Assembly (NCBI GenBank): GCA_963755335.1
Contig: CAVWJW010000004.1
Location: 396,473-460,472 of the forward strand
Source of the DNA: an uncultured Actinomycetes bacterium
GTDB taxonomy: Bacteria > Actinomycetota > Actinomycetes > S36-B12
DNA length: 64,000 bases
Direction: 5' to 3'
The notes beneath the pieces were generated by a model that did no database searches, was not told the origin of the DNA, and worked only from the letters and a program-made list of their open reading frames with translations. Below, in pieces: positions 898-64,000 of this stretch (positions are counted from its first letter, which is position 1; every line of letters begins with the position of its first letter). The translations under genes were made by a program, and so were the position numbers.

Positions 898-936
898 TCG
901 GGGACTCGAAGCCGTGGTGCTATCTACGATGGGGCC

Positions 937-1269
937 ATGGGAATCGACGATCGTGAAGCGCTTCGCCGACTGGTCGAGGAGGAAGGCGACGAAGAGGCAA
1001 CCGTCCTGCTGGTTGAGCTCGCTGTCGCGGAGGAAGACCAGGACTTGCTGCGGTCACTCGTCGATGCCGGCGTTGACAAGGCAGGAGGTGCCCTTGCCCA
1101 GCTGGCAGCGGACGAGGGCGACATCGCGACACTGAAGTGGCTCATCGATGCGGGTAACGACGAAGCGGCGGTCCTGCTCGGGGAGCTCGCTGAGGCCTCC
1201 GGGGACGAGGAACTTCGTCAGTACTTGATCGACTGCGGATACGACCCTCAGGTGGATCGCAGTTCGTGA
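937..1269 (+). CDS. small acidic alpha-helical repeat protein, hypothetical
   Basis: MGIDDREALRRLVEEEGDEEA...; internal repeats of L..LA...GD...L..L.D.G; decayed paralogues at ~47350 and ~47970. Confidence 0.65.
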   Translation: MGIDDREALRRLVEEEGDEEATVLLVELAVAEEDQDLLRSLVDAGVDKAGGALAQLAADEGDIATLKWLIDAGNDEAAVLLGELAEASGDEELRQYLIDCGYDPQVDRSS

Positions 1270-1403
1270 GTTCACACGGATCGACCCCCGCACAGGCAGG
1301 GGCCGATCCTCTTAGGAAATCTGAAGTCGTTCTCTCATGGGCATCACCTCTGTTCCATGGTGCGCCTACTCGGGACCGCCAATCAACACCCTTCCGGCAC
1401 GGT

Positions 1404-4287: not shown

Positions 4288-6351
4288 TCATGCAGACCGC
4301 GTAGGTCGCGGAACTGCGACGACGCGGTTGCGGCCCGTCTCCTTCGCCTGGTACATGGCACGGTCGGCGCGGGCGATCATCGTGTCGACCGGTTCTCCCG
4401 GCGCGCTGAGGGTCACCCCCAGGCTGAGCGTCGAAGGGTGGCCCCCGGGGACGGCGACGTCGGCCACGGTTGCTGCTGCTCGGATCTTCTCGGCGATCGC
4501 GGCGGCTTCGGCCAAGTCATGGACGCCGTCAAGGACGACGAGGAATTCGTCGCCTCCCATACGTGCGACCGTGTCACCGATGCGGACGGCGGATCGGATG
4601 CGCGCAGCGACGGTGCGCATCAGTTGATCGCCTGCGGCGTGCCCTCGGGTGTCGTTGACGGTCTTGAAGTCGTCGATGTCGCAGAACACCAGGGCGCACT
4701 CCTCGCCTGGCCTGCGTACCCGGCGTCCGAGGTTCGCCAGGCGGGTGATGACTTCTTCGCGCCGGAGCAGCCCGGTGAGGTCGTCATACGTCGCGCGCCG
4801 CGCCAGCTCCTGCTCGGCCTCGACAGCGTCGTCGACGACCCGCAAGGTGGACACGACGCCGTCGATCTGGTCATCGGCGTCGCGGTAGGGCTCGGCATGC
4901 GACTCCACCCAGTGGTAGCTGCCGTCCCGCGCCGTCACCCTGAACCGCAGCACGGTGCCGAGGCCGTCGTAGACGCTCGCCACATCACGTCGAACGGAGT
5001 CGACGTCGTCGGGGTGGATGAGGGTGAAGAAGTCCCGTCCCATCCACTCGGTCGGCGACCAGTCCAACGCTCGCTCGAGGGAGGGGGAGATCCACAGCAC
5101 CAGGCCGTGGCGGCTGCGCATGATCACGTCGGACGAATTCTCGGCCAGCAGCCGGTACTGCTCCTCGGATTCGGCGAGCCGGGCTGCCTCGCGGTACCGG
5201 CCGGTGACGTCGCGCCAGGTGAAGCTGAGCGCGTCGCCAACACGCACGGCACTGATGTCGTAGCGCCGTTCGCCGGCCAGGATCTCGTGCGGGTAGGCGA
5301 AATTATCGAGTCTGAGGGGAGTCCCGGATTCCACGGTTGCTGCGTACATCCCCAGCATCCCCGACCCGGCCTGCCCCGGGAGAAGGTCCAACAAGCGCGC
5401 GCCGACAAGCTCACGGCGGTCCAGTTGCATGTACGCGCAGGCGGCCTCGTTGGCCTCGGCATAGATGAAGTCGACGATGCTGCCGTCTTCGGCGCGCACC
5501 GCCTGAAGGAGCGCGTGGGGGTCCAGCAAGGAGTCCATCGTCGCCTGCAGCCGGGCCTGGCTGGCTGCCACCGCCGCGCGATCGTGGAACTGCTGGTCGA
5601 CGTCCCGCAGGCCGACGACCACCCGCCCCGGCTCGATCGCGTGACCCAACGCGGACATCCACACGAACGTGCCGTCCAGGCGCTTGACCCGTACCTCGAT
5701 GGCGGGCAGGACAACGCCGTCGACGGTCGATTCGGCCAGCGCGGTCATGGCCGGCACCTGGTCGTCGGGGTGGATCAGTTCCCACGGCTGGGTACCCAGC
5801 AGATCCGCGGGGTTCCAGCCGAGCGACCTCTCCACCGAGGGGGACACCCATTCCAGGGTTCCATCGCTTTGCACCAGAAGAACGACGTCGGAGGCGTTCT
5901 CGGCCATCAGGCGGTAGTTGTCGTGCGCCTGTCGCTGTTCCGTGACGTCGCGCGCGACCCCGCAGAGGACGACCGAACCGTCGTCGCGGCGATCCTTGCG
6001 CGAGCGATGCTGCGTCCAGATCGTGCGTCCGTCCGCGGTCACGTACCGCACCGTGAAATCGACGACTTCTCCGATCGCCGCATCGCGAACCCGCGCCGCG
6101 ATCGCCCGGTCCCGCGGATCGAGCATCGACCCCATCAGTCCGGTGTCGGCCGCGAACTCCTCCGCCGTACGACCGACAAATGCATGAATCGACGGGGACA
6201 GGAACTCCACCGCGTCGTCCGGCTCCAGCCGCAACACATAGACCACGTCGGACAACTCACCCACGAGACTTGCCACGCGCAAGGCGTCCTCGGGCAGCTG
6301 GTGCCACGCTGATTGCGATCCGCCCCGCATGAAGGCCCTCCCTGAAGCCAC
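4288..6351 (-). CDS. multi-PAS diguanylate cyclase
   Basis: Several PAS/PAC repeats (IHPDD), DIDDFK.VND..GH, intact GGDEF preceded by RxxD (RIGD) I-site. Confidence 0.93.
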   Translation of the reverse strand: MASGRAFMRGGSQSAWHQLPEDALRVASLVGELSDVVYVLRLEPDDAVEFLSPSIHAFVGRTAEEFAADTGLMGSMLDPRDRAIAARVRDAAIGEVVDFTVRYVTADGRTIWTQHRSRKDRRDDGSVVLCGVARDVTEQRQAHDNYRLMAENASDVVLLVQSDGTLEWVSPSVERSLGWNPADLLGTQPWELIHPDDQVPAMTALAESTVDGVVLPAIEVRVKRLDGTFVWMSALGHAIEPGRVVVGLRDVDQQFHDRAAVAASQARLQATMDSLLDPHALLQAVRAEDGSIVDFIYAEANEAACAYMQLDRRELVGARLLDLLPGQAGSGMLGMYAATVESGTPLRLDNFAYPHEILAGERRYDISAVRVGDALSFTWRDVTGRYREAARLAESEEQYRLLAENSSDVIMRSRHGLVLWISPSLERALDWSPTEWMGRDFFTLIHPDDVDSVRRDVASVYDGLGTVLRFRVTARDGSYHWVESHAEPYRDADDQIDGVVSTLRVVDDAVEAEQELARRATYDDLTGLLRREEVITRLANLGRRVRRPGEECALVFCDIDDFKTVNDTRGHAAGDQLMRTVAARIRSAVRIGDTVARMGGDEFLVVLDGVHDLAEAAAIAEKIRAAATVADVAVPGGHPSTLSLGVTLSAPGEPVDTMIARADRAMYQAKETGRNRVVAVPRPTRSA

Positions 6352-21043: not shown

Positions 21044-21668
21044 ATGCGATCGTTCAAGAACGTCACTCCTGCTGAGATCGAGGCCGCCTTTCAGGAGCAG
21101 AAGGAGCGGCTCCCTATCTACTCCGAGACAGCCGCCTTGGCAGCAGCCGTCGTGGTGCGCCCCGACCTGGCTCATTCGGCGCTGGTCGGGATGGCTGTGC
21201 AAGGTCTGCCGGCGCGTGCCGTTGCCGAGCGCCAGCCATGGTCGTGGCTCGGCTGCGAGACCTGTCGCGTCGTGGATGCGCGCGCGGCGTCACTGTTCGG
21301 CGGCAGACGGATCCTTCCGCTGGGCCAGCACTCGATCATGAACGGCGTCAGGCATCCGGCTGTCGACGCCTGATGGACCTGGGCTGGACGCCAAGTTCGA
21401 GCAGTTCGTCGCGCTCGGGCATGGCTGGAAGGACCTGTCACGGTGGGCCGCCGTCGAAGGAGATCGCCTCGCCGCGACGGTGCCTGTTGAGGACTGGGGG
21501 CCATCCGAGTCAGTTCCCCTTGCCACTTGGCGAGAGTGGTTCCCATCCGGTCGCGCCGCGTCGGCGTGCGCGTTCACCCGGCTGATCGCCGAGCAGCAGC
21601 CGTGGCTGGTGGAGATCGATCCGCGCGTCGGCGACGTGGACTGGCTGACGGTGGGTCGGTGTTCATGA
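21044..21668 (+). CDS. hypothetical protein, probably one gene with frameshift near 21350
   Basis: RBS aagga; ORF 21044-21373 continues in another frame as ...LDAKFEQFVALGHGWKDL... to 21668. Confidence 0.45.
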
Positions 21669-23279: not shown

Positions 23280-23416
23280 TTGACCTTCGGATGTTTGCGT
23301 GGCCGATTCTCGCCTCTCACAGCGTCGTCGGTAGTAGACAACTATTGGTCTGCCGTCGCCTCACGGGAGCCAGCACGAACGGGCAAGTAGGGCAGAACTC
23401 AGGGCAGGTTGGTCGA
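23280..23416 (+). repeat. att-like repeat (core plus right arm)
   Basis: ttgaccttcggatgttt ... acaactattgg ... ctcacgggagccagc ... gggcagaactcagggcaggttggtcga. Confidence 0.8.
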
Positions 23417-28990: not shown

Positions 28991-29063
28991 CTCATTTCCG
29001 CGTTTGCGCCACTCACAAAGTCATTGGTAATCAGCAACTATTGGCTTGCCGTCGACTCATGAG
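28991..29063 (+). repeat. att-like repeat (degenerate core plus palindrome)
   Basis: ctcacaaagtcattggtaatcagcaactattgg...gactca nearly identical to 42256-42303. Confidence 0.8.
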
Positions 29064-29257
29064 TACGTGCGAGTGCGACCGAGGAGGTAAGTGAAACGAT
29101 CGCGTGGGGTGGCTTCTTGGGCAGGGCGTCCCGTTCGACATGGTTGCTAACCCTCGGGAACCACTCAACGGCTCGGTAGCATGGACTTGTCGTCGTGACC
29201 AAGGTTCCCGGGCGGCTAGGTCCGGACTTGCACAAGTTCACCGAGGAAAGAGCTGAG

Positions 29258-36626: not shown

Positions 36627-37510
36627 GAACTCCGATTCCTCGAGGACGAGCGACGACCGTGCCGTGCTGTCAACGCTACGGTGACGTTCCTAAGGCTCCG
36701 CTGAGAGACGGGTGCGGCGATGCTCAGGTTGCCGCGCAGGTTCCGTTCGTCACTCTGAAGGCCTGAGGCGATAAGTGCGGGTAGTGGGGGTGAGCGCGCA
36801 GGTATTGATCGTCGATGACGAAGTGCCTCTCGCGGGTCGATTCGTATGAGGCTCGTTGCCACGGGCTTCGATGTTGATGTCGTTCATGGCCTCGAACCAC
36901 GAGCGGAGCGGCGACCAAAGTTCTGTCAAATTGCCGAAGGTGCACCAGGGCCCAGCCAATTTGAACCCGACCACATCGCATTGGTTGCAGAGCTCGCAGG
37001 AGTCTGGGGAGCCACCCGCGCATGGACCCGGGTGCCCACCGGAATACTCAGATCTGCGACTGCACTCGGCGAGCGCCGTCGGCGCCGGGGCCATAGGCGG
37101 CGCTGACGTGGAGCAATGACTTATCCCAAATATTGATGCGACGACGCGCTGGGGCAATGAGTGCTCGTTTGGGGGCCGCCGACGCCTGCGAGGTGTGCAC
37201 TTCCCAGTAACCGCGCAACTCATCGGGAAGCGGCCAGAACTCGTAGTCGAGGCGCTCGAGACCGGCTTCCATCGTCAAGGCTCGCGAGCAGGACGGTGAT
37301 GGCCACCGTGCGGCTCCCGAACGGAGCTACTCCACCGCCCGGACCCGTGCCTGTGGTCAAACAGCGTGACGTTCACTCCGCACAAGTAGACGTACCCGGT
37401 CGGCTTCACCAAGTGTTCTTGTGAAGGGCCGTCGCACCCAGGCAGGCACCCACGGATGACTCTTCAATTTCGGCCCGATTTGCCTGACCATCCCATGCTG
37501 GCCCCGCTGG

Positions 37511-37530
37511 TTGACCTTCCGATCTTTGCG
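37511..37530 (+). repeat. isolated att-like core
   Basis: ttgaccttccgatctttgc identical to 63367-63385. Confidence 0.7.
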
Positions 37531-42148: not shown

Positions 42149-42350
42149 GGGTTGCGGAGCTTCCACTTGTTGCGCTGCAACGACTTTGGTGGCCAGGGGC
42201 GGGGTCGAACCGCCGGCCCTTCCGATCTTCAGCCGACCCCGATCGATTCTCGGCCCTCACAAAGTCATTGGTAATCAACAACTATTGGCGTGCCGGCGAC
42301 TCACAGGAGCCAGCGAGAGCCAGCAAGTCAGGGCAGACATCAGGGCAGAT
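42149..42350 (+). repeat. best-preserved att-like repeat
   Basis: tgcgctgcaacgactt + tRNA-Phe 3' half + aagtcattggtaatcaacaact + gggcagacatcagggcaga. Confidence 0.85.
42187..42232 (-). pseudogene. 3' half of tRNA-Phe (anticodon loop to CCA), att-site duplicate
   Basis: Minus strand CTGAAGATCGGAAGGGCCGGCGGTTCGACCCCGCCCCTGGCCACCA; T-arm and CCA present, 5' half absent. Confidence 0.85.
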
Positions 42351-42453
42351 ATGTTGCACCGTCGCTCTCACGGCGTCCCGCATCCGGAGCAGGTTGAACT
42401 CCATCCGTACGTACGGGGTGCGCCGCGACGGCGAGAGATCGACAATCGACGCC

Positions 42454-43095
42454 TCATACGGACCCGCGACGGCGCTTGCCGGACTTGCCGGCGACGAGGC
42501 GGGCGTTGACCGCGCTTCGGACGATATCGATGATCTGGGGGTCATCGTGAAGGAGATACGCGATGTCGGCTCCCGTCAGCATCGTGCCCAGCTCGACGGC
42601 GAGGCGGACCGGATCAGACCCGGCGGGCAGTTCAGCACCGTCCGCGGCCCTGCGTGCTTGGTCCGTGAGCAGCGCGATCCACGCATCGTGTTCGGCAGCG
42701 ATCAGGTCACGCACGAGCCCGGGGCGGCTGCCGACCTCGGCCGCGACGCTCGCGAAGAAGCAGCCTCCCGGATAGTCGCGTCGTTCGACGTGGTCCAGGT
42801 AGGCCAGGCAGAGGGTACGCAGTTGGGGGAGCCCGGGAGGGGCCGTCAACGCGGGCTGCACCACCTGTTGCACGAACACTGATCGGGCGTGCCCGATGAC
42901 GGCGCGCTGCAGTTCCTCTTTCGACCCGAAGAGGCCGAAGACCCCGCTCTTGCTCATCCCCGTGGCGGTGGCGAGCCCGGCCATCGAGAGGCCGTCGATT
43001 CCTTCCACCGTGGCGAGGGCGGCCGCAGCCTCAAGGATCGCCTCGCGCGACCGATCCCCATCCGTGCGAGATGGTCGTCCGGGAGTGTTCGGCAC
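42454..43095 (-). CDS. TetR/AcrR family regulator
   Basis: ILEAAAAL...G.SKSGVFGLFGSKEEL; GGCFF. Confidence 0.9.
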   Translation of the reverse strand: MPNTPGRPSRTDGDRSREAILEAAAALATVEGIDGLSMAGLATATGMSKSGVFGLFGSKEELQRAVIGHARSVFVQQVVQPALTAPPGLPQLRTLCLAYLDHVERRDYPGGCFFASVAAEVGSRPGLVRDLIAAEHDAWIALLTDQARRAADGAELPAGSDPVRLAVELGTMLTGADIAYLLHDDPQIIDIVRSAVNARLVAGKSGKRRRGSV

Positions 43096-43103
43096 CTAGA
43101 CAA

Positions 43104-43156
43104 ATTAGCACGCACGAGCGTACGGTCTACTTGTCCGCACGATCGTGCCAACTAAT
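43104..43156. promoter_or_regulatory. probable TetR operators in divergent intergenic region
   Basis: Perfect palindrome GCACGATCGTGC (43137-43148) and imperfect CGCACGAGCGTACG (43111-43124). Confidence 0.6.
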
Positions 43157-43168
43157 GAAGGGCGTTCG

Positions 43169-43708
43169 ATGTCCCCCTCGACTGCGCCAGCCCGTGAAAG
43201 ACAAGCCCCTCTCCGCAAGGCCTACGTGAACGATCCCTCGTTGGCCATCACCACCAAGCACGTGGTGTCTCGGCAGACGGACGACACCGACACCTGGCAC
43301 GGCGTCGTCGGCTCGCCGCAGTTTCCTGGCACGACCTGGAACTACGGGATCGATGCCAAGGTCGGCGGTGACGACGATCTGCCCAACCCTGGCCACCTGC
43401 TGTGCGCCGCACTCGCCGCGTGTCTGGAGAGCACCACGCGGGCGATGGCCGAGCACCTCGACATCGCCATCGCTGAGCTCGATGTCGAGGTCGTCGGCGA
43501 CGTCGACGCACGCGGCTGCCTGGCCATCGACCCAGCCGTCCGATCCGGCTTCCGCCACATCGACGTGGACGTACGCCTCCGAGCCGCCCCGGGCACCGAT
43601 CCCACCAGGCTGCGAAAGCTATTCGTCCTCGTGGAGGAACTCTGCGTCACCTTGGATACCCTCCGCACGGGAGTGCCTATAGACGTGCTCACCAAAGCGA
43701 GCACGTAG
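43169..43708 (+). CDS. OsmC family protein
   Basis: PNPG.LL.AALAAC, V.GD.D.RG, C.TLDTL. Confidence 0.85.
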   Translation: MSPSTAPARERQAPLRKAYVNDPSLAITTKHVVSRQTDDTDTWHGVVGSPQFPGTTWNYGIDAKVGGDDDLPNPGHLLCAALAACLESTTRAMAEHLDIAIAELDVEVVGDVDARGCLAIDPAVRSGFRHIDVDVRLRAAPGTDPTRLRKLFVLVEELCVTLDTLRTGVPIDVLTKAST

Positions 43709-43883
43709 CCAGCCGAGGTCAAGGTGTCGGCACCGTGAACGAGGTCCCCGGAGCGATGGCCCGTCCGCCAGTCGGTGTCGCCGCGATGCACGCGGATCAG
43801 TTCGCGAACGCTGAGGGGGTCGTCGAGCCCGGGATGCGAAGGACCTCAAGCGAGTTCAGGGTGCTCGCACGCAAGGAATTCAG

Positions 43884-45689: not shown

Positions 45690-45845
45690 CTGAACGCGGG
45701 CGCGGCGCCGCTCGCATCGTCTGTTGGGACTCCGCATTGAAGTCCGTCCGCATCCTCGTGGACTCTGTTTCTTTGGCCAACTGCGAGAGGAGTCTGCTCC
45801 GCCGCATCCGCGTCCGCAACCCCGAGTGGACTCAGAAGAATGGGC
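45690..45845 (+). pseudogene. decayed paralogue of the baseplate-like fragment at 1404-1710
   Basis: AARIVCWDSALKSVRILVDS...LLRRIRVRNPEWT vs AVRIVAWDAASQSIRILVDS...LLRRIPVHNPDWT. Confidence 0.7.
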
Positions 45846-47349: not shown

Positions 47350-47472
47350 TTGGGGCCACGGGACTGGACGATCGTGAAGCCATGCGCCGACTGTTCGAGG
47401 AGGAAGGCGACGACGGGGCCGCCGTCCAGCTTGTTGAGCTCGCAGTTGAAGTAGGAAGCGGACTTGCCGCGG
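47350..47472 (+). pseudogene. truncated paralogue of acidic protein 937-1269
   Basis: GLDDREAMRRLFEEEGDDGAAVQLVELAV. Confidence 0.7.
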
Positions 47473-47621
47473 GTAGCACGACCGCATCGTTCCGGTACTG
47501 ATCGTTTCCGACGTTCGCGCCGGCCTTGGTGAAGACGGACGCGACGCGGACGGTGAACGTGGTCAACCCCGCGAGCAGCTGACACCGATCCCAAGTGCCA
47601 CCTCTCCACAGAGTCCACGTC

Positions 47622-47950
47622 TTGACCTTCCGTTCTTGCCGCCAAAGCGAGATTCTTCGTACCGACCGTGATGCCAGCGCACGATCCGGTGTTCGACCTC
47701 CAACAACGAAAGGGCAGCGATCACTTGCCTAGTGAATCAGTCCGGATTGCGAGGGCAGAAAGCGCTGGGCTGCAACGACTTTCCAGGACTACCGATTGCG
47801 GGGCCGAACGCCATTGACCTCCCGGCTCTTCAGCCGTCCCGGACCAATTCCCGACCTCACAGAGTCATTGGCATTAAGCAACTACTTGACACTGTCGGCG
47901 ACTCACGAGAGAGCGTGAACCGGCAAGTAGGGGCAGAGTTTGGGGTAGAG
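47622..47950 (+). repeat. double att-like repeat (core, ~193-bp unit, core, right arm)
   Basis: Cores at 47622 and 47814; colinear with 53344-53680 and 63367-63696. Confidence 0.8.
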
Positions 47951-47967
47951 ATGACGAACCATCAAGG

Positions 47968-48266
47968 CCCTGGGACTTGACCATCTTGAAGCGCTGCGTC
48001 GGCTGGTGGAGGAGGACGAACTCGACGAGGAGACCGCGGTCTTGCTGATTGAGAAGGCCGTCGCGGAGGAGGACCTCGATCTGATGTGGTCACTCGTCGA
48101 CTCTGCCGTTGATCAGGCGGGTGGCGCCCTTGCCCACATGGTGCCGAAACCAACTGACGTCGCGACCCCGAAGTGGCTCATCAAAACGATCATGTCGATC
48201 CGGTGGCCACGCTCGCTGAGATCCCGGACGTATCCGGGGACGAGGCACTTCGACAGTGGTGACTGA
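47968..48266 (+). pseudogene. decayed paralogue of acidic protein 937-1269
   Basis: EALRRLVEED...VLLIEKAVAEEDLDLMWSLVDSAVDQAGGALA...KWLI. Confidence 0.75.
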
Positions 48267-48464
48267 TGGGGAAGACGACCCTCGGGTGGATCGCGCTTCG
48301 TGAGCCACCATCACGGCTCGGGCCGGCCTCCGCTATCTCGGACGATGCCCTGGGGGATTCTCGAAGTCGGGAATTGGCGCCCTCACGCTTCAGCGGCACG
48401 TCGGGCCGCGGCAACTTCCGGCAACATTGCGACGCGACGCGACGACGCGGTCGAGGATTGCGGC

Positions 48465-53285: not shown

Positions 53286-53680
53286 GCGGGTTGCGGAACT
53301 CGGCTGGAGGGACTTCGGCTGCCACGGTGCACGCCCGGAGCCGCCCACCTTCCGATCTTTGCCGCCAGATCACGACGCGTCGCGGCGACCGTCGTGGCAG
53401 CGTGCGATCCGGAAATTCGTGCTCCGACGCGAAAGGGCAGCGCCCCTTTCCAAGTGATTGAGTCTGGATTCGCCACAAGCGAAAGTTAATGCGCTGCAAT
53501 AACTTTCTCTTGTCGGCGTTTCGGGGCAGAGTGTCGTTGACCTCCCGATCTTCTGCCGTCCCAAACTGATTCTGGCTCCTCGCAAAGTCATTGGTATTAA
53601 ACAACTATTGGACTTGCCTCGACTCACGAGAACCAGCGTGAACCGGCAGGTAAGGGCAGAATTCAGGGCAGGTTGGTCGA
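53286..53680 (+). repeat. double att-like repeat preceded by decayed tRNA-Phe 3' half
   Basis: gggttgcgga...gacttcggctgccacgg...ccgcccaccttccgatcttt; second core at 53537; aagtcattggtattaaacaactattgg; gggcagaattcagggcag. Confidence 0.85.
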
Positions 53681-55933: not shown

Positions 55934-56492
55934 CCCGAACGCCGCTACGGTCGGGCCTTGTGGCGGCTGTGCTGTCAGCCTCGATCGCCTTGGTGGGCCT
56001 GTCGGCGTGCAGCGGTTCACCTTCCTCCCAGACGCCAAGCATCGTCGGCAGCGCCCACGTCGGCGCTGCCCGGAGGGACCACGGCACCGGCTGAACCGGC
56101 CCGAATCATCTCCCCTTCCGCGTTTAGCCCTCCGACACGACGGAGGAGGACCGGCATAGTCAGTTCCTCGGCTGCAGCAGGTGTGAATCCCAGCGACACG
56201 AGTGCACCGGTTTCCCCTGGCAGGAGTTGGGGCTGTTGCCTTGACCCGTCTCGAAGGCCGCGCTGGTTTCCCGGGACTTCGGTCGCATCTCGCTTGCGGC
56301 CTTCGCCCGGCGCCCGGCGGTGTCGGGCTCGTGCGACCGTGACTTTGCCGCGGCTCTAGCGCGACCACTTGACCGGGCGAAGCCGTGTCGGATCCTTGGT
56401 GTGCGGCGTGTAGCTCACGCTCTCTCCAAACGTTCACCTAACCAACGGCACGTGGCAATGTCCGGCGCGCGGTGTCAGGCTGAACTTTCGTC

Positions 56493-56888
56493 GTGAGAGG
56501 GGCGTCAGTGACGTTGTCTTGTTCGGTGGCCACGTGCCGCCTTCCCCTGTTCAACGCGCTGTTCTGCGAGGCGCATGCGCAAAGGCAAAGAGCATTCGGT
56601 GTCGCCTTGATGACGCCTCTGCGCGCGCACCACGATCAAGGCTGCGTCATTAACGGATGCCGGCGTCGTGCTCGACGCGGACTGTGCGTTGAGCATCGAA
56701 GGCTGCTCAGCGCGGGGGATCACACGATCCTGGCGGCCCTTGTGGTGGCGTGCCTCGGCAGCGCGTCTGGGCACCGCTGCGGCTGCGGCCAGATCGCATC
56801 GGTATGGGCATGGGACGGGACCGGCCGCAAGGAGGACGTCCACCGGTGGGGTGCAGTCTGCTCCAAGTGCGCGAGATTCGGGCGCTGA
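56493..56888 (+). CDS. Cys/His-rich putative Zn-finger protein
   Basis: CSVATC...FCEAH, CVINGC...LCVEH, CGCG, CSKC. Confidence 0.4.
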   Translation: MRGASVTLSCSVATCRLPLFNALFCEAHAQRQRAFGVALMTPLRAHHDQGCVINGCRRRARRGLCVEHRRLLSAGDHTILAALVVACLGSASGHRCGCGQIASVWAWDGTGRKEDVHRWGAVCSKCARFGR

Positions 56889-57147
56889 CCAAGCGATCGT
56901 CTGTTGGTAACACTGACGAGTCATTCGTCGTGACGAGTGGACGTCCGATCGCCGGCGACCTGGTCGTCCCGTGGGTCGCCCGCGCGAGACTCAGTGGCCG
57001 GGGGCAGCGAGTGCACTTTCGCCAGAAGCTCCGTGGCGCGGCTTCAGAGGGTTCACCGCAAGCGCCTCGGACAGCGGGCATCCTCACTAGTTCCGCTGAA
57101 CAATGCCGGTTGGGCGGTGACGGGGTCAAGGCCTGGAGGTGGGCGTC

Positions 57148-57693
57148 GTGCGGGTGCTGGTCGTCGTGGAGAGCATGTTCGGCAACACCTACCGTGTCGG
57201 CGCGTCGGTCGTCGAAGGCCTGCGTGACGTCCACCCTTCGGTGACCGCCTACGTTGTCCGCGTCAACGACGTCCTGGCCGCCGATGTCGCCGACGCCGAC
57301 CTGCTGGTCGTCGGAGCGCCGACGCATTGGCGCGGCATACCCTCTCAGCGGACGCAGCACGAGTACCTCAGCGAGGCCGGCTTGGCGGCAGGCGTGACCC
57401 GAATTGGGACACCGATCGACCCCTCAGCCGCCCCGACGCGGATGCGTGACTGGCTGGGGACCCTTCCCCCGGTGGAGGCCGACCGCGCCGCGGCGTTCGA
57501 CACCCGCCTGGCGCGGCCGTTCGCGGGCGGCGCGGCGCCTCGGCTGGCGGGTCGGCTCGCCCGTCTGGGCTACACCCTGACCGGGGAGCCCACTGGATTC
57601 TTCGTGATCGGGATGGAAGGACCGCTGCGTCCAGGTGAACTGGATCGAGCGCAGGACTGGGGCTATGAACTGCTCTCGCCCCTGCTCGCCTGA
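57148..57693 (+). CDS. flavodoxin family protein
   Basis: ESMFGNT, DLLVVGAPTH, AAAFDTR, GPL..GELDRA..WG. Confidence 0.88.
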   Translation: MRVLVVVESMFGNTYRVGASVVEGLRDVHPSVTAYVVRVNDVLAADVADADLLVVGAPTHWRGIPSQRTQHEYLSEAGLAAGVTRIGTPIDPSAAPTRMRDWLGTLPPVEADRAAAFDTRLARPFAGGAAPRLAGRLARLGYTLTGEPTGFFVIGMEGPLRPGELDRAQDWGYELLSPLLA

Positions 57694-58022
57694 CCGCGCC
57701 CGCTCGAGTCCTCCTTCGACCCAAAAGGCGTCCCCTCGGCGCATCCCAAAATCGAGGTGAATGTCCAGACGCGATGTCGACCCTTCATGGAGCCGGGCCA
57801 ATAGAGATCGTGTAGATCGACCGTGCTGGAGTGTTACCGACGCACGGGTTCTCGGATTCGGTGCGTGGAGTATGTGTGGGTCTCAATCAGGAGCCCGATG
57901 TCAGGGCTTCGCGCACCGCGAAGGAACTCCCGGTGAGCGGCGGGGAGGTGACACTTCGCATGTGATCCTGTGCGTCCCCGTCAGGCAGGTCGACGACTTC
58001 TTGAGCGGCGGTCGTCCTCGGT

Positions 58023-62074: not shown

Positions 62075-62605
62075 GCTTTCGAATGGGACTAGCGCAGGAG
62101 TTTGCGCCGAAGCGACGACCTGCGGATCGCCGGACCTACCCAGTCGGGTCAAGGTCGGCTGGAAATGCGGTCATCTGAGGCCGCTCAGAAGACGGCGTTG
62201 GAAGTGCGCTCATGCGGTCATCGCTTCAGCGCCCCGAGGATGACCCAAGCGGGCCGGAGCCTTTGGTGTCTATCTGGCCAACAAAGACGACCCGACCAAC
62301 GGTTCACGCCGAAGCCTTCCAGGATGCCAAAGGCCGTCACTGAGTCGGTGGGTTCGACGATCTGTAATGCGGAGCACCGTTGCCTCGCGTCACGTCGTAC
62401 CAGTCGTGCACGCCGATACGACAACGAATGGACTTGCGCGCCGGGAACGGGTCAGCCACGTCGCATCCTCGTACTTGCATTTGAACTCGACCGGTGGTCC
62501 CTGAAGGCCGTTGACGACGAAACTCCGGCTCTTCTGGACTCCCCTCGCGGACGCCGCAGTCGAGAATGCCACGGCTCCCAGGGACGTCGGGTGAATGGGG
62601 CGCCG

Positions 62606-62989
62606 TCATGTGAGGGCTGCGGCCATTCCCGCCTGATCGGCATGGATAGACCAGCACTCGACGGCCCGACCGTCACGGAAGTGAAACACCAGGACCTCGC
62701 CACTGGCGAAAGGCGTGGGCTTGTCCCAGCGATCGGTGAGCAGAACGACGACGTGATCGTCGTCGGCGAGGATGGCATGGACGTCCTGCTGGAAGGTGCC
62801 CTCGGTCACCTCAGCCACCTTGCCGAAGAAGCCGTAAACGGCCTCCCGGCCGCGGTATTCACCCGACAGGGCGCTTGTGCCGGCTACCCGCCAGACGATG
62901 TCCTCGCCCAGGATCCCACCCACGGTCTCCAGGTCGCCGGCGGCGAATGCCTGGAAGGCGGTCACAATCAGTTCAGCATCACGGTGCAT
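62606..62989 (-). CDS. SnoaL-like / NTF2 family protein
   Basis: AF..GDL, WRVAG...LSG.Y.GRE, DDDHVV, FHFRDGR. Confidence 0.85.
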   Translation of the reverse strand: MHRDAELIVTAFQAFAAGDLETVGGILGEDIVWRVAGTSALSGEYRGREAVYGFFGKVAEVTEGTFQQDVHAILADDDHVVVLLTDRWDKPTPFASGEVLVFHFRDGRAVECWSIHADQAGMAAALT

Positions 62990-63366
62990 GGCGGTCTCCT
63001 CGAGTGATCGATGCGAGCGGCAGTGAGGTCTTAGTCCTCGTCGCCCGGTGGTGAAGGGCGCGGCTGGGGGCCGCAGCCGCGGCGAACACGGCATCGGCAA
63101 CCAATACCCGGGCTTGGGCAATTAAGTCATGCCTTCGTCAAAGGTTCCCGAAGAATCCTGGGTGTGGCCGGTGGATCACTCATCGCGATACCGATTCACG
63201 GATCGATCGCACCGGCGCGTGCCGCGGAAACGCCGGGCCGACAAGTTGAGGACAAGCCATGTCGTCCCCCTCTCAATTGGGACAAAAGGTACGCTTCTGA
63301 TGCAGAGATTTCTAGGCGCCAGGCTGCCTGGATTCGGCCACACGCACCCGCTGAGAACGCTGGCCC

Positions 63367-63696
63367 TTGACCTTCCGATCTTTGCCGCCAAAGCACGATT
63401 GTTCGTGCCGACTGTGATGCCAGTACACGATCCCGGAATTCGACCTCAAACACGAAAGGGCAGCGCTCCTTTCCGAGTATATGAGTCTGGATTGGGAACG
63501 CGCGAAAGTGATTGCGCTGCAACAACTTTCGAACGTCGGCGTATGTGAGCAGAGTGCCGTTGACCTGCCGATCTTCAGCCGACCCCGATCGATTCTCGGC
63601 CCTCACAAAGTCATTGGTAATCAACAACTATTGGCGTGCCGGCGACTCACAGGAGCCAGCGAGAGCCAGCAAGTCAGGGCAGACATCAGGGCAGAT
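63367..63696 (+). repeat. double att-like repeat
   Basis: Cores at 63367 and 63560; gaaagtgattgcgctgcaacaactttc palindrome; right arm identical to 42222-42350. Confidence 0.85.
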
Positions 63697-63799
63697 ATGT
63701 TGCACCGTCGCTCTCACGGCGTCCCGCATCCGGAGCAGGTTGAACTCCATCCGTACGTACGGGGTGCGCCGCGACGGCGAGAGATCGACAATCGACGCC

Positions 63800-64000
63800 T
63801 CATACGGACCCGCGACGGCGCTTGCCGGACTTGCCGGCGACGAGGCGGGCGTTGACCGCGCTTCGGACGATATCGATGATCTGGGGGTCATCGTGAAGGA
63901 GATACGCGATGTCAGCTCCCGTCAGCATCGTGCCCAGCTCGACGGCGAGGCGGACCGGATCAGACCCGGCGGGCAGTTCAGCACCGTCCGCGGCCCTGCG
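63800..64000 (-). CDS. 3' end of duplicate copy of the TetR gene at 42454-43095 (truncated by window)
   Basis: 63568-64000 matches 42222-42654 apart from one substitution seen. Confidence 0.85.
   Translation of the reverse strand, partial: RRAADGAELPAGSDPVRLAVELGTMLTGADIAYLLHDDPQIIDIVRSAVNARLVAGKSGKRRRGSV

Follow-up and report, generated by a model that had tools for sequence, protein, structure and literature searches.

The 64,000-nucleotide stretch analysed here, called the window (G000:C4:396473-460472), belongs to a contig of an uncultured Actinomycetes bacterium and contains two near-identical copies, about 21 kb apart, of a segment encoding a TetR-family regulator and an OsmC-like protein. 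The contig continues past the window, and we extended the comparison beyond its end. Judging from the sequence comparison, we think it probable that the copies stand at the head of two old paralogous islands in tandem, and that gene conversion recently homogenised their first 1.5 kb. The original prediction was that a tetR-osmC cassette had recently been re-inserted at an att core. The duplication is real, its left edge does coincide with a true att core and the near-identity is of recent date, but a fresh site-specific re-insertion of a cassette was not supported. With extension past the window end, a seeming fresh cassette insertion came to look like an ordinary homogenisation patch between old tandem islands.

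By blastn, copy A (42218-43745) matched copy B (63564-64000 in the window and on to 65091 outside it) over 1528 bp at 99.67% identity. The five differences lie at copy-A positions 42221, 42568, 42889, 43483 and 43652. This match cannot be due to chance. The blastn start at 42218/63564 takes in three further matching bases left of a T/G mismatch at 42221/63567; counted from the core, the same duplicate is 1524 bp long with four differences. Each copy comprises a 130-nt att arm, a TetR gene and an OsmC gene. In copy A these genes are at 42454-43095 on the minus strand (213 aa; Pfam TetR_N 8.9e-10, TetR_C_13 9.9e-24) and 43145-43708 on the plus strand (187 aa; Pfam OsmC 6.7e-19), and in copy B at 63800-64441 (minus) and 64491-65054 (plus). 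Three of the four in-tract differences are synonymous and one is conservative (D113E), with none in the 318 non-coding nucleotides. Both TetR differences are synonymous, leaving an identical protein, and the OsmC copies differ by D113E and one synonymous change. The agreement of 63568-64000 with 42222-42654 was just as first described, the sole difference (42568 G, 63914 A) falling at coding nucleotide 528 of the minus-strand TetR reading frame and leaving the residue unchanged. Polarised by the 77%-identical tetR-osmC pair of the relative G002, two of the four differing sites were derived in copy B and one in copy A, the other being uninformative; thus, both copies have mutated since the event.

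Identity begins at CCGATCTTCAG, in an att core as the original prediction had it; this core is derived from tRNA-Phe. In copy A this is the core of att unit c42 (42215-42232, minus strand), an imperfect copy of tRNA-Phe nt 32-49 made up of the anticodon loop GAA, the 3' anticodon stem and the variable loop, and the duplicate begins here. To its left stands an exact tRNA-Phe nt 50-77 (T-arm, acceptor 3' strand and CCA; 42187-42214, minus strand), the B' side of an attR-type junction, whose 28 nt are identical to the 77-nt tRNA-Phe of G021, G004 and G018. With the relatives' tRNA-Phe as blastn query, the match spanned 42187-42232. The Rfam tRNA model scored 18.9 bits over 42190-42255, under its cut-off of 29. 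To the right, the P arm of copy A (42233-42353) carries a decayed stretch resembling a tRNA 5' half, and repeated short motifs (repeat families D3 and D5). The left flanks of the two copies differ, as had also been seen: copy A has the exact tRNA-Phe 3' end and copy B a decayed one. Over the 200 nt left of the core, the copies were 27% identical ungapped and matched at 121/200 positions with gaps. Because c42 is of attR type and the corresponding unit in copy B, c63, is of attP type, homology starts only at the core, and the left edge is therefore uninformative about mechanism. We note as a caution that a repeat edge on an att core, where attR-type and attP-type copies are compared, is no proof of recent integrase activity.

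A recombinase might nonetheless have recently cut at the att core and re-inserted the tetR-osmC cassette, or a longer island, 21 kb away, later trimming by deletion having left a right end outside any att site. The left edge lies exactly on the core, and the c63 junction reads P'-core-P, as tandem accretion predicts. Such recombination does occur in the lineage: G004, of the same genus, carries at G004:C4:1818773-1848616 an intact tRNA-Phe and four extra 3' halves over 30 kb, with a PF00589 integrase adjoining one of them, so integrase-driven accretion at tRNA-Phe takes place in this genus. The right end argues against it. Identity had been expected to run to the next att core, near the equivalent of 45375, but it stops about 1.6 kb short, at 43745/65091, which is 37 nt beyond the OsmC stop codon. 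This end is unrelated to any att repeat, an outcome that the original prediction itself had named as telling against it, and no core-like 19-mer was found there at up to four substitutions. A core-like 9-nt word, AGGTCAAGG, does occur at 43716, 21 nt inside the right end, and would favour re-insertion, but it is inverted relative to the array cores and lies 21 nt from the breakpoint. It matched five times in the window against 0.35 expected, at least one match being a Glu-Val-Lys codon run, and we rejected the word at 43716 as an att site. Together with the older paralogy and the recombinase searches described below, these results lead us to regard re-insertion as distinctly unlikely.

What adjoins the right end also bears on the mechanism. 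Copy B alone has 107 extra nucleotides (65092-65198), after which homology resumes: a 63-nt relic of an HxlR-family gene at 43746-43808 (minus strand) is homologous to 65199-65261. An intact hxlR reading frame adjoining copy B (65107-65778, Pfam HxlR 1.2e-19) contains 65199-65261; since the relic is a piece of it, copy A once had hxlR and has since lost it. The relic is 92% identical to its counterpart, not 99.7%, which also speaks against re-insertion, with 5 mismatches in 63 nt against 4 in the 1524 nt of the tract (Fisher P = 9e-6). Four of the five relic mismatches are clustered within 6 nt, and P rises to 0.002-0.004 when the clustered mismatches are counted so as to give three mutational events. 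This weakens the case for conversion, because with so short a relic the clustered mismatches could stem from one messy deletion, which would leave room for a larger, recent duplication that then decayed rapidly. In a 282-nt contig of sequencing run X3, with about 93% similarity to the window, the 107 nt are lacking: the osmC end is joined directly to the relic (joint 5091 to 5199), and a copy-A-like flank follows. This single low-depth contig gives a weak hint that a diverged relative has a right junction of the copy-A type, which would then be older than the patch.

We compared segment A, from the core at 42222 to the core at 63567, with segment B, from 63568 to about 88800. They share five colinear blocks in the same orientation, of which only block 1, the duplicate itself (99.7%, 1524 nt), is near-identical. 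Block 2 is the hxlR relic (92%, 63 nt), and block 3 pairs 56318-57700 with 76643-78021 (93.8%, 1383 nt). Block 4 pairs 62370-63323 with 85861-86817 (86.8%, 959 nt) and includes a SnoaL-like gene at 62606-63121 on the minus strand. Block 5 consists of the P' arms of units c63 and c88 (82.3%, 192 nt). Each segment opens with a core, a P arm, tetR, osmC and hxlR, and closes with a SnoaL gene followed by a P' arm. The block-3 gene, intact in segment B, is frameshifted in segment A and carries a TGA there. The best reading of this layout is that both segments represent the same type of island and are old paralogues in tandem. With four colinear blocks at 82-94% identity, both loci were paralogous before the recent event, which also counts against a fresh re-insertion; as blocks 2-5 span 82 to 94%, a single age for the older paralogy is unsupported.

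The block-3 family, which has no Pfam match (open reading frames of 172 and 274 aa), is intact at 76693-78014 in segment B, beyond the window, and frameshifted with a TGA at 56867-57690; several broken copies lie at contig C7:4445-8697. Homologues at 35-43% identity were present in 11 of 32 other genomes of the genus. The 274-aa protein was considered as an island-specific recombinase and rejected, its 35-43% homologues lying elsewhere in the genus, away from tRNA-Phe. Further paralogy links the first 2 kb of the window (930-1270 and 1573-1698) with the 45.7-48.3 kb part of the array (47351-48304 and 45706-45831), the direct repeats being 72-82% identical and the inverted ones 83-92%.

The sequence itself shows the anatomy, the identities and the lack of recombinase genes; the order of events and the kind of recombination are what we infer from it. 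Tandem accretion of two related islands, or an old tandem duplication, would have produced segments A and B, which would then have diverged by 6-18% with many indels. Recent homologous recombination, either non-allelic gene conversion or a double crossover, would have homogenised the first uninterrupted 1.5 kb of homology. The patch would be limited on the left by the core, beyond which the true tRNA 3' end follows in copy A and a P' arm in copy B, and on the right by the 107-nt indel. Two features of a conversion patch are present: a near-identical tract inside colinear paralogy of lower identity, and two ends at breaks in homology. Conversion is weakened by the fact that a tract normally needs flanking homology to resolve, since its left end reaches the limit of detectable homology. 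The older tandem placement of the islands may well have used the att cores, which fits the architecture, but that placement is not recent.

The two related islands could instead have reached tRNA-Phe separately, already sharing a near-identical tetR-osmC end module through recombinational exchange among elements of this family in the donor pool, in which case the patch would predate integration. The c63 unit matched in 7 of 33 genomes of the genus, G000 included (E 1e-5 or better), and the matches were at least 130 nt long in 5 of 33 (G000, G008, G048, G002 and G013). Across species of the genus the units are 73-88% conserved and keep the same two-core architecture, with unrelated cargo between them, which speaks for separate arrival. 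The tetR-osmC pair also behaves as a portable two-gene module: it occurs once in G002 (77% nucleotide identity) and in an Acidobacteriota metagenome-assembled genome (58% at the amino-acid level), with unrelated flanks. A near-identical module was, however, not found outside G000: no close sister genome carried both modules, only G002, at 77%, matched over more than 1 kb among 40 relatives, and scans of genomes and metagenome contigs yielded only proteins 56-58% identical. Moreover, the patch is bounded just where homology between the two resident loci breaks off, as conversion in situ predicts. We consider separate arrival unlikely, and retain homogenisation of resident paralogues as the preferred reading.

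The contig is metagenome-assembled, and two strain variants of one island could have been strung together, or a repeat expanded. The assembly comprises 8 contigs and is 86% complete, segments A and B show the colinearity expected of alleles, and the only tRNA-Phe gene appears split, which is odd for a viable cell. On the other side, 4-5 positions distinguish the copies, each of which is flanked left and right by unique sequence, and contig C4 (572481 bp) runs 112 kb past copy B. The sequence shared at the c63 junction should also fall well short of the length at which a long-read or large-k assembly would make a false join. Among 14 public sequencing runs, the best held 0.19 of the sampled words and none held half or more. 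Short zero-difference contigs from X1, X3 and X4 covered the unique sequence on either side of copy B but not the junction, and among the contigs of runs X1-X4 no piece bridged the left junction at 63564. We judge an assembly artefact highly improbable.

The duplicate sits in an array of island modules of about 50 kb that is inserted in a tRNA-Phe gene, its modules being parted by att units derived from tRNA-Phe; the window falls within it. The only tRNA-Phe detectable in the assembly is split across this distance, with nt 50-77 at 42187-42214 and nt 1-49 at 92191-92239, both on the minus strand and 100% identical. The 45 tRNAs that ARAGORN found in G000 serve every amino acid but Phe (19 of 20); a second copy may lie outside the assembly, the genome being 86% complete. 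G021, G004, G018 and G048 each have one identical 77-nt tRNA-Phe(GAA) beside tRNA-Asp and tRNA-Glu; G000, with a G+C content of 68-69%, likewise has a Glu-Asp-Phe tRNA cluster. The gap between tRNA-Asp and tRNA-Phe is 26-44 nt in G021, G004 and G048 and 895 nt in G018. In G000, 1643 nt (92240-93882, beyond the window) separate tRNA-Asp from the tRNA-Phe 5' part and hold two open reading frames, one for a polyketide-cyclase/START-like protein and one with no Pfam match. Past tRNA nt 49, the junction at c92 continues into a decayed part that has no T-arm (Rfam tRNA model, 33.5 bits over 65 nt). At the attL side, then, the target tRNA-Phe is not restored by the att site of the element.

In tRNA orientation, a full att unit is about 330 nt long and reads P arm, core, P' arm. 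The P arm (about 130 nt) holds a decayed part resembling the tRNA 5' end, the core runs from the anticodon loop to the variable loop, and the P' arm (about 200 nt) holds a decayed tRNA 3' part and a hairpin, with a second core copy at its end. Unit c92 forms an attL-type junction (tRNA nt 1-49 and a P' arm) and c42 an attR-type junction (a P arm and nt 50-77). Units c47 (47620-47953; left arm, core and right arm), c53 (53347-53671) and c63 (63366-63699) have both arms and form internal attP-like junctions, as expected between tandem elements. Between the tRNA-Phe pieces there are also a deleted unit, c88 (88604-88795), and partial units at about 45.4 kb. The left or P' arm of c63 (63366-63567; decayed tRNA 3' part and hairpin) is 82% identical to the left arms at 88604-88795 and 91993-92195, 78% identical to 53347-53671 and 88% identical to a unit in G008. 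Core-like matches in c63 lie at 63367 and 63560.

A second core copy closes every P' arm, about 195 nt from the first (63367-63385, 47622-47640, 88603 and 91994), and it is kept in the units of G008, G048 and G002. A lone word resembling it, with 6 matching flank bases, was seen at 37505-37530. Relics of P arms also occur on the far side of the genuine tRNA-Phe 3' end, left of 42187, at 23304-23416 and 29007-29083. A simple nest from attL to attR thus does not describe the array, whose variable region may reach still further left. We rejected two other roles for the arms. As structured RNA, five left arms analysed with RNAalifold on both strands gave positive, that is penalising, covariation terms (+4.48 and +1.48). 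As coding sequence, the left arm offered an open reading frame at 63129-63548 that had no Pfam match and was not selected by the GC3 filter. Rfam returned no family for the att arms; at the gathering threshold the only match in the window was a SAM-IV riboswitch, and at an E-value threshold regions L033 and L010 gave only tRNAs and sub-threshold noise. The riboswitch (RF00634; 20926-21035, plus strand; 78.8 bits, E 2.3e-12) lies just upstream of an open reading frame at 21044-21373.

Searches for recombinases weigh further against re-insertion. All nine PF00589 matches in the assembly lie outside the array, so that it has no tyrosine recombinase gene; the closest is at window coordinates 127139-127720 (C4:523611-524192), beside tRNA-Lys. 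The serine recombinase domains PF00239 and PF07508 had no match across the 86%-complete assembly. It is possible that a recombinase acts on the array in trans. Among 40 open reading frames selected between 23 and 94 kb for a Pfam scan, the cargo comprised regulators, methyltransferases, oxidoreductases, signalling proteins and one IS481-type transposase. That transposase (70240-71253; rve_3, LZ_Tnp_IS481), the only mobility gene among the 40, is in segment B between a PAS-GGDEF-EAL gene and a PAS-GGDEF gene. None of 10 open reading frames taken from relatives' islands encoded a recombinase.

Several known systems resemble parts of this array. In the account of cis-mobilisable accretion in PMC5704250, CIMEs are elements that have lost their integration genes and kept their att sites, and they accrete in a three-step model. 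The modules here, which have att sites and no integration genes, agree with that definition, and the array resembles CIME/ICESt1-related accretion in that its modules are parted by att repeats from the target tRNA and its internal junctions are attP-like. Unlike the CIME case, there is no integrase anywhere in the array, the attL side lacks a restored target tRNA, every P' arm has a second core copy, and the recent event is best explained as homologous rather than site-specific. In the tycheposon islands of Prochlorococcus, as outlined in bioRxiv 10.1101/2020.12.28.424599, successive integrations at one tRNA push older elements inward and leave degenerate elements and partial tRNAs scattered. 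The array is likewise a tRNA-linked island with scattered partial tRNAs, but its host is a different organism with a high-GC genome, its repeats include both arms in addition to the partial tRNA, and no integrase fragments were found.

The homogenisation itself has a counterpart in concerted evolution, described in PMC6053082 as paralogues being more alike within a genome than to homologues in other genomes. The copies here are 99.7% identical within the genome, against 77% to G002 and about 93% to a metagenome contig, and the patch is bounded by discontinuities in homology. It differs in being a single 1.5-kb patch in accessory island genes, rather than a long-lasting process in core genes, and the conversion is one that we infer. 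On the preferred reading, the duplicate is a routine patch of homogenisation within an array of islands.

Integrons combine an IntI tyrosine recombinase and an attI site with single-gene cassettes bounded by attC sites that form hairpins. The array shares with them cargo modules parted by a repeated element resembling a recombination site, and the original prediction likewise spoke of a cassette. In contrast, it has no PF00589 or IntI-type integrase, its repeats are tRNA-derived units of about 330 nt, and its modules are 2.5-25 kb long, multi-gene and on both strands. With no IntI and with multi-gene modules, we rejected the array as an integron. The double-core att units could still be sites of an integron-like capture platform whose recombinase is encoded elsewhere or is unrecognised. 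The 1.5-kb identity would then reflect a recent exchange by that recombinase, in which one crossover fell at the core and another near the inverted word at 43716, and the whole 50-kb array might excise reversibly, restoring the only tRNA-Phe; we regard this as very doubtful.

What is of note is the anatomy of the array: about 50 kb with no recombinase gene, built around a two-core att unit that recurs in other species of the genus. These surroundings are more interesting than the duplicate, and the split tRNA-Phe, if it is real and has no second copy, would need explaining.
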